Below are positions 57,693 through 60,127 of a stretch of 64,000 bases of DNA, piece after piece. Position 1 is the stretch's first letter. Each line of letters begins with the position of its first letter. The DNA comes from Escherichia coli (GTDB taxonomy: Bacteria; Pseudomonadota; Gammaproteobacteria; Enterobacterales; Enterobacteriaceae), in assembly GCF_030013205.1 (NCBI RefSeq), contig NZ_CP122648.1; one strand, 5' to 3'. The notes below the pieces were generated by a model, which saw nothing but the letters and a program-made list of their open reading frames with translations, ran no database searches and was not told the DNA's origin. A program made the translations under genes and the position numbers.

Positions 57693-58436
57693 TTATTCTT
57701 GAGCGGAGCCAGAACTCATCTCACTGAATGCAGCCATCCTGTAACCTTCCGGGGTGACCCCAAAATAACGCCTGAATACACTGATAAAATAAGATGTATT
57801 ATTATAGCCACACTGCACAGCGATTCTGTTGATGGCACAGCTATATTGATGCAACAGCATTGCTGCCATTCTCATTCTCTCCGTAAGCAACAACTCACTG
57901 AAACATGTGCCTTCTTCTTTCAGTCTTTTTTTTAACAAACTTTCACTCATACATAACCGTGATGACACATCTCGCAGAGTCCAGTTTGCTGCAATGTCTG
58001 TATGAAACAACGCACCAAGCCTGCCGCTGATAGTACTGATACACGCGGTCATAAACGACGAAAACATTTTATCTGATGAAAAAAACGCCAGACACGAAAA
58101 GGAAAGCATTTCCGCTAAATTGTCCGTATGAATCTTTTCCTCATAAAGATAATCAATCAGGATGCCCATCAATTCTGGCCTGGGAAAACTCATGCAAAGA
58201 TATCGTGGCATTTTCCGGACTAAAACAACATCCTGTTTTACCCCACTACGCAACAGGTAACGGCTAATTGTCGATTCACTGAGACTTATACGCCGAAAAC
58301 ATTCAGAAAAGGGCAATAACGGTCCAGCCCCTCCCCTGACAAGAAGTGCACTACCACTTTCCAGAGAGAGTACTTTTCCTTCGAAGAGCACAACAAACGG
58401 GGAATGAACAAAAATAACAGAACAGGCCTCATTCAT
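57693..58436 (-). CDS. AraC/XylS-family transcriptional regulator (prophage cargo; start assigned at MNEACSV)
   Basis: C-terminal dual-HTH AraC domain (..WTLRDVSSRLCMSESLLKKRLKEEG.. / ..AVQCGYNNTSYFISVFRRYFGVTPEGYR); AT-rich; divergent from the two-gene cassette. Confidence 0.8.
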   Translation of the reverse strand: MNEACSVIFVHSPFVVLFEGKVLSLESGSALLVRGGAGPLLPFSECFRRISLSESTISRYLLRSGVKQDVVLVRKMPRYLCMSFPRPELMGILIDYLYEEKIHTDNLAEMLSFSCLAFFSSDKMFSSFMTACISTISGRLGALFHTDIAANWTLRDVSSRLCMSESLLKKRLKEEGTCFSELLLTERMRMAAMLLHQYSCAINRIAVQCGYNNTSYFISVFRRYFGVTPEGYRMAAFSEMSSGSAQE

Positions 58437-58715
58437 ATCAATATCCCTGACATTACTGGTCGCAAGATAAGTATATATCACTTTACAAAAATGCAAGCCG
58501 TGAGCCCCGAATTCACGACCACCAGCGTGTTTACTGTACTGCACCAGGTTTACAGGTACAAAAAACCGCTCGACGGCGGGTTTAAGCTGTGTGGCGAAGT
58601 AACCACTCTTAACAGATTAAGATAAAATTTGCGGACCGCGGTAATTTTTTTTGCTAAATTAAAGCCATATAAAAAATAAGATCCATAAGAAATTATTAGT
58701 ATACTAAGGTTTAAC

Positions 58716-59657
58716 ATGGCTACTATTGCGCAATCAAAGAAACAAAAAAAACTTAAAATTGGTTTTTACACCAGCAGTTCTGGGACTATCCGCAGCCATT
58801 CAGTTGCTAAGCAAGCAATTGAAAATCTGTATAATACTTGCGTAACCGTTACGAATAATCATTTTGATACCATCTATAGAAATAAAAAGTTAAAAATAGC
58901 TTTTATAAATAAAGATACAAAAGCTAAATATTTCTTCGGCTACATGTCATGCTCACGAGAAGAGTATCTCCTTCCTTATATTGGTGATGAACACTGGAAT
59001 GAGCACAACATACCACTAGATGATAAAAAATACATAGTCGAAAGAACCTATTTTTTATATTATTACGATAGTGATATTTTAATATTAACTCAAAATCATC
59101 TTGGGCCGAAAGAATCGGATTTAGCTTATCTGCTTTACAGCCAGAGTGGTAATCCTGGAAATAACTTTTCATTCCAAGCCATCTGGAAAAAAGAGAGCGT
59201 CAAAGAGCTACTTGAAACAGGAAGTACTTTGAGAAGTTGTGATATTGTCCTGGCTGCTCCCAGGAACTTTGATGCAACAAATTACCAGCTAAATAGTTCA
59301 TTTTCTAAGGAACTGGTAAATATGATGGTAGGGCTGGGTGGAACACGTCTCAAGTTAAATCTAAGGGGACGTGCATCAGGGAGAGTAAAAGTCAAAGGTT
59401 ATTTATCAGATCTCGTTAAGGATGGTATTAAAGAACTCCTTGAAAAAATGCCGGGAATTGTAAAAAAAGCGGCAGTAACACAGCCCAAAAATACCGTTGA
59501 ACAAAGTCTTCTTGATCAGGTACTCATTTCAGAAAAAAACATATATACCGTTAATGGTTATGGCACTGATAGTGATGTTCTGCAAGCCATGATTTCTGCT
59601 AAAATTGATAACAATGAATACCTTAAGCAATACGATATCAGCAAAAAGAAGGTATAG
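58716..59657 (+). CDS. Hypothetical 313-aa soluble protein; candidate sensor component of a RexA/RexB-like two-gene module
   Basis: AT-rich ORF with strong Lys-rich N-terminus, no recognisable catalytic motif; 3-bp gap to a 4-TM partner; position and size comparable to RexA (279 aa). Confidence 0.5.
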   Translation: MATIAQSKKQKKLKIGFYTSSSGTIRSHSVAKQAIENLYNTCVTVTNNHFDTIYRNKKLKIAFINKDTKAKYFFGYMSCSREEYLLPYIGDEHWNEHNIPLDDKKYIVERTYFLYYYDSDILILTQNHLGPKESDLAYLLYSQSGNPGNNFSFQAIWKKESVKELLETGSTLRSCDIVLAAPRNFDATNYQLNSSFSKELVNMMVGLGGTRLKLNLRGRASGRVKVKGYLSDLVKDGIKELLEKMPGIVKKAAVTQPKNTVEQSLLDQVLISEKNIYTVNGYGTDSDVLQAMISAKIDNNEYLKQYDISKKKV

Positions 59658-59660
59658 GAT

Positions 59661-60104
59661 ATGTTATTGAAATACTTAAGAAACCTGATTGTAAGTGTTT
59701 TTTGCACCTTGTTCCTACTGAGGTATATCCCTCAGATGGGGCATGCTGACATACTTACAGCCTCCGGGGTTATTTCAACTGTATCCGGTATTTTATTTGG
59801 TTTTATTTTAGCCACAATATCAATTTTTAGTGCTGCTAGCGAAAACTCAAATGGAATAATAAAAGCATTAAAAAACAACAACATACTTCAAGTTATTATT
59901 GTAAATCTATTAACCGCAGGTGCATCTTTAATTACGGCATGCGTTATTGCTTTGATAGCAATGTTTGCCAATGAAAAGACATTGTTACATGGAGAAAAAA
60001 TAGAATTTATTTTAATTATCGAATCTTTATCTCTTCTTATCATTTCAGTAATAACTTTTGCCTTTACATGGAGAAAAGTAAACTGGATACTCCCCCACAT
60101 TTAA
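59661..60104 (+). CDS. Hypothetical 147-aa four-helix membrane protein; candidate RexB-like effector
   Basis: Four hydrophobic helices (~9-24, 37-59, 75-103, 115-137); size and topology match RexB (144 aa, 4 TM); short motif LLRYIP resembles RexB as I recall it. Confidence 0.5.
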   Translation: MLLKYLRNLIVSVFCTLFLLRYIPQMGHADILTASGVISTVSGILFGFILATISIFSAASENSNGIIKALKNNNILQVIIVNLLTAGASLITACVIALIAMFANEKTLLHGEKIEFILIIESLSLLIISVITFAFTWRKVNWILPHI

Positions 60105-60127
60105 AAAGGGCAGAAATGCCCTTTTTT
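60104..60127. terminator. Bidirectional intrinsic terminator between the cassette and Q
   Basis: AAAAAGGGCA-gaaa-TGCCCTTTTTT. Confidence 0.85.

Follow-up and report, generated by a model that had tools for sequence, protein, structure and literature searches.

Among abortive-infection systems, RexAB of phage lambda is, to our knowledge, the one known longest; studies have covered only about half a dozen Rex-type pairs, and distant ones escape the standard detectors. Here we describe two adjacent genes in a 64,000-nucleotide stretch of Escherichia coli DNA (contig NZ_CP122648.1, assembly GCF_030013205.1; hereafter the window), which lie in a prophage between the antiterminator gene Q and the late region and encode a soluble protein of 313 amino acids (aa) followed by a 147-aa membrane protein. 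Precedents for the mechanism of such pairs come from lambda RexAB, mycobacteriophage Sbash, Gordonia phage CarolAnn, and RexABpp (PP_5643/PP_5644) of Pseudomonas putida prophage P1, a RexAB-like abortive-infection defence pair that is missed by Pfam (PMC12894663). Similarly, the Sucellos system (SclA/SclB), a cassette of the Vibrio cholerae chromosomal integron, is RexAB-like in structure, is missed by Pfam, and acts by abortive infection (10.1101/2024.07.02.601686). Both of its genes are required, it has its own promoter, and its BLASTP homologues are found mostly in prophages, often of Salmonella (10.1101/2024.07.02.601686).

The pair in the window is an uncharacterised enterobacterial branch of the RexAB-type abortive-infection systems. 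It is probably a prophage-borne two-component exclusion (abortive-infection) module and a remote homologue of lambda RexA-RexB. The two proteins have fold and profile homology to RexA and RexB, the genes are strictly paired, the cassette has recognisable boundaries, and it is independent of a neighbouring gene for an AraC-family regulator. The two genes are:

58716-59657, plus strand: rexA-like gene encoding a 313-aa soluble protein (Pfam DUF6731), the predicted sensor and DNA-binding component
59661-60104, plus strand: rexB-like gene encoding a 147-aa membrane protein with four transmembrane helices, the predicted effector

The 313-aa protein is related to lambda RexA

The 313-aa protein matches the Pfam family DUF6731 (PF20505) with an E-value of 2.1e-10 over residues 34-260, and the Prokaryotic Genome Annotation Pipeline (PGAP) uses the same name; it also matches phrog_7651. 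Among 1.84 billion proteins, DUF6731 has 230 cluster representatives at E<=1e-3, and the term 'DUF6731' was absent from the literature searched. The AlphaFold model of the protein (alignment of 36 homologues; mean predicted local distance difference test score, pLDDT, of 80) has the two-domain fold of RexA and RdgC. In a Foldseek comparison of this model with the PDB, two chains of lambda RexA (8TWQ) ranked at the top, with E-values of 4.5e-8 and 1.1e-6, followed by E. coli RdgC. Two independent methods agree that lambda RexA is the closest solved structure to the protein. RdgC, CHL4, IML3, and CENP-N also match the model, far below RexA, and the structural neighbours are largely those published for RexA itself (PMC11077077).

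Profile comparison likewise aligned the two families. When a DUF6731 profile of 177 sequences was compared with a four-sequence RexA alignment using hhalign, positions 13-310 were collinear with positions 1-273 of RexA (E 1.5e-4, probability 52%). The score of 36.2 compares with 14.3±2.2 (maximum 19.5) for 60 shuffles that kept the local composition, and with 16.7 for the reversed alignment. The motif '...GP..sDL..fL' is common to the DUF6731 protein and RexA. With a shallow alignment, the probability for the 313-aa protein against a single RexA sequence was 0.7%, and phmmer and hmmsearch against PDB sequences returned nothing for either protein of the pair, the 313-aa profile search missing 8TWQ. 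On the predicted structure and the aligned profiles, homology of the 313-aa protein to RexA is well supported, though the protein falls outside the Pfam RexA family.

The 147-aa protein resembles RexB

The preliminary description of this locus had given the second protein four transmembrane helices, and both approaches used here agree. The hydropathy profile has four hydrophobic segments (approximately residues 2-20, 37-55, 78-96, and 116-134) at positions equivalent to those of RexB, and the AlphaFold model (pLDDT 86) consists of four long helices (2-22, 28-59, 75-102, and 114-146) and a short amphipathic helix. The only database match of the protein is phrog_8552, of unknown function, and a Salmonella relative has 43% identity. 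An LLRYIP motif had also been likened to RexB, and the comparison holds: lambda RexB contains 'LLFRHYIP', and BLASTP pairs this stretch with 'LFLLRYIP' of the 147-aa protein, the alignment running 'LFLLRYIPQM-GHADIL' against RexB 'LLFRHYIPGVSFSAHRDGL'.

An hhalign comparison of 57 distinct partner sequences with the RexB family gave 117 collinear columns (E 2.3e-4, probability 44%) and a score of 30.4. Shuffles that preserved the transmembrane layout scored 13.4±3.0, and 0 of 150 reached 30.4. With shallow alignments, the probabilities for partner against RexB were 6% and 19%; for RexA and RexB alike, the profile signal became convincing only after both families had been widened and shuffle controls added. 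In a Foldseek search of AFDB50 with the 147-aa model, a RexB-family protein, which NCBI names 'ExbB', appeared at rank 31 with a template modelling score (TM-score) of approximately 0.7. The evidence from sequence and predicted structure is suggestive of homology between the 147-aa protein and RexB and is not conclusive on its own.

Two annotation matters concern this protein and its relatives. RefSeq/PGAP calls the membrane protein as 122 aa from an internal methionine (locus L001, 10337-10705). This call is probably too short, as homologues conserve both the first helix and the start position, which favours 147 aa. Separately, many RexB (PF15968) homologues at NCBI are mislabelled 'biopolymer transporter ExbB'.

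An alternative is that the pair belongs to a different class of membrane-plus-soluble systems, such as Kiwa or a superinfection exclusion protein that blocks DNA entry, and that its likeness to Rex reflects a shared ancient RdgC-like fold. The matches of the 313-aa model to RdgC, CHL4, IML3, and CENP-N mean that the fold is not unique to Rex, and the fold matches of the partner are mostly uncharacterised proteins. However, proteins with the RdgC, IML3-CHL4, and CENP-N fold differ from the pair in scoring much lower than RexA, in lacking a membrane partner, and in having other functions. Kiwa also differs, since KwaA, with four transmembrane helices, precedes KwaB (DUF4868) and the gene order in the window is the opposite; PADLOC gave no Kiwa match and the Pfam scan no DUF4868. 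A different class of system is highly improbable.

The two genes are strictly paired and occupy more than one genomic home

The membrane partner lies directly downstream of the DUF6731 gene in all 80 related viral loci, with gaps of -38 to +88 nucleotides that are mostly 2-21 nucleotides. The same pairing occurs in a Vibrio island, in prophages of E. coli and Yersinia (copies 44-57% identical), and in metagenomic contigs (copies approximately 20% identical). Of 27 distant viral loci, most also keep it, with an overlap of 38-47 nucleotides between the genes. Across viral loci, the identities of the DUF6731 protein and its partner to the window pair fall together (100/100, 87/70, 82/63, 62/54, 57/49, 45/50, and 39/26%).

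Pseudomonas phage AUS531phi, like at least three other lineages, has a cI-like repressor gene (phrog_4 or phrog_6201) followed by the DUF6731 gene and then by the membrane partner. Examples of cI-adjacent DUF6731 genes are AUS531phi and loci L120, L123, L126, and L130, and in AUS531phi a Cro-like gene is divergent from the cI-like and DUF6731 genes. This order is that of lambda cI-rexA-rexB and offers independent support for functional equivalence. The RexAB-like two-gene module of the preliminary description is well supported, by RexA as the top structure match, by collinear profiles scoring above shuffles, by gene order, sizes, and topology, and by the cI-adjacent relatives.

Two IMG/VR loci (L129 and L130) carry a cI-like repressor gene followed by a DUF6731 gene, have no recognisable membrane partner, and have only non-hydrophobic 68-aa open reading frames (ORFs) downstream. 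Both could be orphan RexA-like genes, which have been reported among RexA homologues (PMC11077077).

The pair lies at the junction of Q and the late region, far away from the immunity region, in the window and in 73 of the 80 related loci. As had been noted before, this location differs from that in lambda, with the pair placed between Q and the late genes and not beside cI. Nucleotide similarity detected the pair in 53 of 5426 complete E. coli genomes. The window region is 100% identical to a prophage of pig enterotoxigenic E. coli (ETEC) and O139:H1 E. coli strains, and phage cdtI, which is Cdt-converting, encodes the 313-aa protein with 100% identity as orf54. Family members were observed in or named from Escherichia, Klebsiella, Salmonella, Citrobacter, Yersinia, Serratia, Xenorhabdus, Vibrio, Aeromonas, Shewanella, Pseudoalteromonas, and Pseudomonas. 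An integron-cassette reading of the Vibrio, Shewanella, and Pseudoalteromonas DUF6731 pairs was considered and dropped, as relatives on viral contigs adjoin cI-like repressors.

The slot itself can hold other cargo. In a sister prophage of E. coli RM10740 (L096), which has the same Q, AraC-family, tRNA, and lysis genes, it is occupied by an ompC porin gene (5818-6915 of that locus), and the slot is therefore an exchangeable cargo site.

Two further observations were made on individual copies. Citrobacter braakii ATCC 51113 (L102) has a 99% identical copy of the 313-aa gene, and so close a copy in another genus implies recent transfer of the phage or cassette between genera. In phages vB_EcoS-733R5 and vB_EcoS-716R3 (ON470608 and ON470622), the DUF6731 homologue is mislabelled 'portal (connector) protein'.

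Points against a Rex-type defence module and a role in prophage development

Several results weigh against reading the pair as a Rex-type defence module. A Pfam scan of the 313-aa protein (E<=10) returned DUF6731 and a chance match to Tfb2 only, with no RexA family (PF15969), and the 147-aa protein had no match to the RexB family (PF15968) at E<=10, although all true RexB homologues carry PF15968. PADLOC, including its RexAB models, gave 0 matches for the 313-aa, 147-aa, or AraC-family protein; NCBIfam gave nothing for the 313-aa protein and only chance-level matches far below cut-off for the 147-aa protein. The hhalign probabilities are modest for both proteins, a consequence of the shallow RexA and RexB alignments. 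Four-helix membrane bundles are structurally unspecific, and most AFDB50 matches of the 147-aa model are uncharacterised proteins of approximately 145 aa. A promoter scan found no consensus site upstream of the pair, and sites overall were fewer than expected by chance. Finally, lambda RexA has roles other than defence, and the two proteins exchange roles in phage Butters (PMC12894663), so that the direction of signalling within the pair is not guaranteed. Foldseek and PADLOC had both been proposed as homology checks in the preliminary description; the former places RexA first for the 313-aa protein, and the latter has no match.

In lambda, RexA tips the CI/Cro switch in favour of lytic growth, and RexB shields labile phage and host proteins from ClpXP. 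The main rival explanation is accordingly a role in the lysis-lysogeny decision, in which the pair would chiefly serve the prophage's own development and phage exclusion would be at most a by-product. Several distant DUF6731 pairs do directly follow a cI-like repressor gene, and L129 and L130 combine a cI-like gene with DUF6731 in the absence of a recognisable partner. Additionally, lambda RexA acts on the bistable switch without RexB, an option that the authors of its structure raise for Rex homologues generally (PMC11077077). In contrast, the distance from the immunity region in the window and in those 73 loci, in a typical moron slot, does not favour this explanation. Moreover, both genes are needed for defence in three of the four listed Rex-like pairs outside lambda (PMC12894663) and in Sucellos (10.1101/2024.07.02.601686). 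A chiefly developmental function is unlikely; a role in lysis and lysogeny is nevertheless compatible with one in exclusion.

Layout and boundaries of the cassette

The remaining features of the locus are:

57693-58544, minus strand: AraC-family ORF, 283 aa from a GTG start
57693-58436, minus strand: AraC/XylS-family regulator (YdeO/GadX-like), from the likely start Met37
58511-58645: phage backbone segment beside the cassette, outside the module
58646-58715, plus strand: cassette-specific upstream region, with an AAGG ribosome-binding site at 58706-58709
60103-60127, both strands: bidirectional intrinsic terminator, separating the pair from the convergent Q gene, from folding of both strands
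60128-60505, minus strand: Q antiterminator gene, convergent with the pair
57201-57275, minus strand: tRNA-Gly gene (anticodon UCC), between the AraC-family gene and the holin genes
55705-56742, minus strand: lysis genes, on the same strand as Q

The three ORFs, their low G+C content, the spacing of the pair, the terminator beside Q, and the orientation antisense to the late genes are all as first described. The stop of the 313-aa ORF is 3 bp from the start of the 147-aa ORF, and G+C content is 0.30-0.39 over 58550-60200, compared with 0.52-0.59 in the flanking phage genes. The terminator separates the stop codon of the 147-aa gene from that of Q and has the layout A5-GGGCA-GAAA-TGCCC-T6; its sequence is AAAAAGGGCA-GAAA-TGCCCTTTTT at 60103-60126, with the hairpin core GGGCA/TGCCC at 60108-60121 and an extra T at 60127. 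Its folding energy is -13.4 kcal/mol on the plus strand and -13.0 kcal/mol on the minus strand, with shuffle z-scores of -4.5 and -3.4, respectively. Both strands thus fold clearly better than shuffles, and 'bidirectional terminator' is a fair description. Two other hairpins, at 58552-58592 (minus strand) and 58618-58655 (plus strand), were considered as terminators and rejected, as their folding was no better than that of shuffles.

On the left, homology to phages with a different cassette variant ends at 58645 (L004). The 135 bp of 58511-58645 are 92% identical beside that variant, whose proteins have 44% identity to those of the window pair, and are therefore phage backbone. This segment is also present in phages that lack the AraC-family gene (L015-L031), and in phages with the 44%-identical cassette it lies directly upstream of the holin gene. 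It may be a late promoter or Q-utilisation region, in which case the cassette would sit between Q and the late promoter. The cassette proper, bordered by the backbone segment and by Q, spans approximately 58646-60131, and the pair's own promoter is presumably within 58646-58715.

Rfam returned the tRNA and nothing else in the window; the tRNA-Gly gene occupies a site that also holds tRNA genes in Stx-type phages. The stretch 56768-56938 (minus strand), immediately upstream of the holin genes, contains a group of three or four terminator-like hairpins that have T-runs; this number exceeds chance expectation for the region and fits terminators through which Q-modified polymerase has to transcribe. 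An AT-rich 197-aa ORF (55040-55633, plus strand), located between lysis genes and terminase on the strand opposite the late genes, is a further moron, named 'lipopolysaccharide core heptose(II)-phosphate phosphatase' by PGAP.

The AraC-family regulator is a separate moron

The preliminary description had treated the pair as an AraC-regulated cassette. In such an arrangement, the three genes would form one AraC-controlled unit, in which the regulator would respond to a host or gut signal by switching on the pair. In E. coli prophages, AraC-family morons similar to YdeO/GadX are known to act as regulators, and the gene in the window is divergent from the pair, with an intergenic region of 171 bp to the GTG start or 279 bp to Met37. 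Met37 (58436) is the likelier start, since residue 37-38 is where homology to YdeO and phrog_1450 sets in; the 5' extension before it crosses a recombination breakpoint at 58511. The shared control region of 280 bp that had been proposed matches in length when measured to Met37, but part of it, 58511-58645, is phage backbone.

However, the distribution of the regulator gene does not follow that of the pair. It lies beside the pair in only 3 of the 80 related viral loci and in 13 E. coli genomes, and 64 of 5426 E. coli genomes carry it. Phages without it (L015-L023, L026-L027, and L031) have a 99-100% identical pair, and the sequence that they share with the window begins only at 58511 and extends rightwards. 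Conversely, an identical regulator gene accompanies ompC in place of the pair in L096, and a 91% identical copy is found in an unrelated prophage context, next to a DUF1133 gene (L095). The gene is on the late-gene strand, downstream of the conserved backbone segment that separates it from the pair, at a position that we take to be like that of stx genes. Based on these comparisons of sequence, the regulator gene is a separate moron that inserted independently and not a conserved part of the module. A single AraC-controlled unit is very unlikely, and the pair is most likely not AraC-regulated.

Among NCBIfam models, the regulator scores best with YdeO (E 9e-42), followed by GadX (9e-30) and HilD (3e-26), and at the family level its match to AraC/XylS proteins is clear. 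All scores are far below the cut-offs (143 bits for YdeO, against a curated cut-off of 348), and the gene is thus a YdeO-like paralogue of unknown target. It is worth separate study as a possible regulator of host genes.

Proposed function and significance

A mechanism can be proposed by analogy with the characterised Rex-type pairs. The RexA-like 313-aa protein would be cytoplasmic, probably a DNA-binding dimer, and would sense a superinfecting phage and activate the RexB-like 147-aa protein. The latter may oligomerise into a channel or pore, so that membrane potential or integrity would collapse, growth would stop, and the infection would be aborted. The genes form a self-contained AT-rich cassette between Q and the start of the late region, which points away from the late genes and ends in a bidirectional terminator; this suggests that they are expressed in the lysogen from their own promoter. 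Expression in the lysogen we infer from the orientation opposite the late genes, the terminator, and the moron-like composition; similarly, we infer a defence phenotype for the pair.

Structure, profile, strict pairing, and the cI-rexA-rexB layout elsewhere together provide a testable function for DUF6731 and for its unnamed membrane partner. The pair is carried by pig ETEC and O139 strains, by the Cdt-converting phage cdtI, and by prophages of several enterobacterial genera, and the slot that this putative defence cassette fills, between Q and the late region, is swappable. More tentatively, DUF6731 and its partner of approximately 145 aa could form a large unannotated branch of a Rex superfamily in Gammaproteobacteria prophages, with the cI-adjacent position and the slot between Q and the late promoter as its homes, and could perhaps bring lambda RexAB, Sucellos, and RexABpp together in a single ancient family of sensor-plus-pore systems. 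Reports of RexAB-like systems missed by Pfam already date from 2024-2026, so that the gain is mainly one of annotation and hypotheses. What is added here is the link of DUF6731 and its partner to RexA and RexB, the cassette with its boundaries and its two alternative genomic locations, and its separation from the AraC-family regulator.

Comparison with known systems

RexABpp belongs to a different host and prophage, and its likeness to the window pair is by description only. A 22-mer derived from a RexABpp primer was absent from viral and metagenome collections, and other primer-derived DNA strings and end peptides of RexABpp were absent from the sequences gathered for this analysis.

Sucellos was likewise compared with the window pair by published description only; by that description, both are two-gene cassettes that are RexAB-like by structure and missed by Pfam, and both have an association with enterobacterial prophages. 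V. cholerae was absent among 30 named representatives of the DUF6731 family, and a scan of a genome collection for the 313-aa gene found two loci only, in C. braakii and Xenorhabdus stockiae, and none from V. cholerae.

Lambda RexAB differs from the window pair in sequence, with an identity of approximately 10-16%, and the Pfam RexA and RexB and PADLOC models do not recognise the pair. It also differs in location, since in lambda the genes are in the immunity region downstream of cI and are co-transcribed with it, whereas the window pair is between Q and the late genes, where transcription from a PRM-type promoter is impossible. Lambda RexAB is known for excluding T4 rII mutants by depolarising the membrane. 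In other respects the two systems are alike. Both are carried by temperate lambdoid phages, and in both a gene for a soluble protein of approximately 280-310 aa is followed, a few bases downstream, by one for a protein of approximately 145 aa with four transmembrane helices, so that the rexA-rexB order, adjacency, and common strand are the same. Additionally, both proteins have collinear profile similarity to their lambda counterparts, and distant DUF6731 members are found next to cI, as are the rex genes of lambda.

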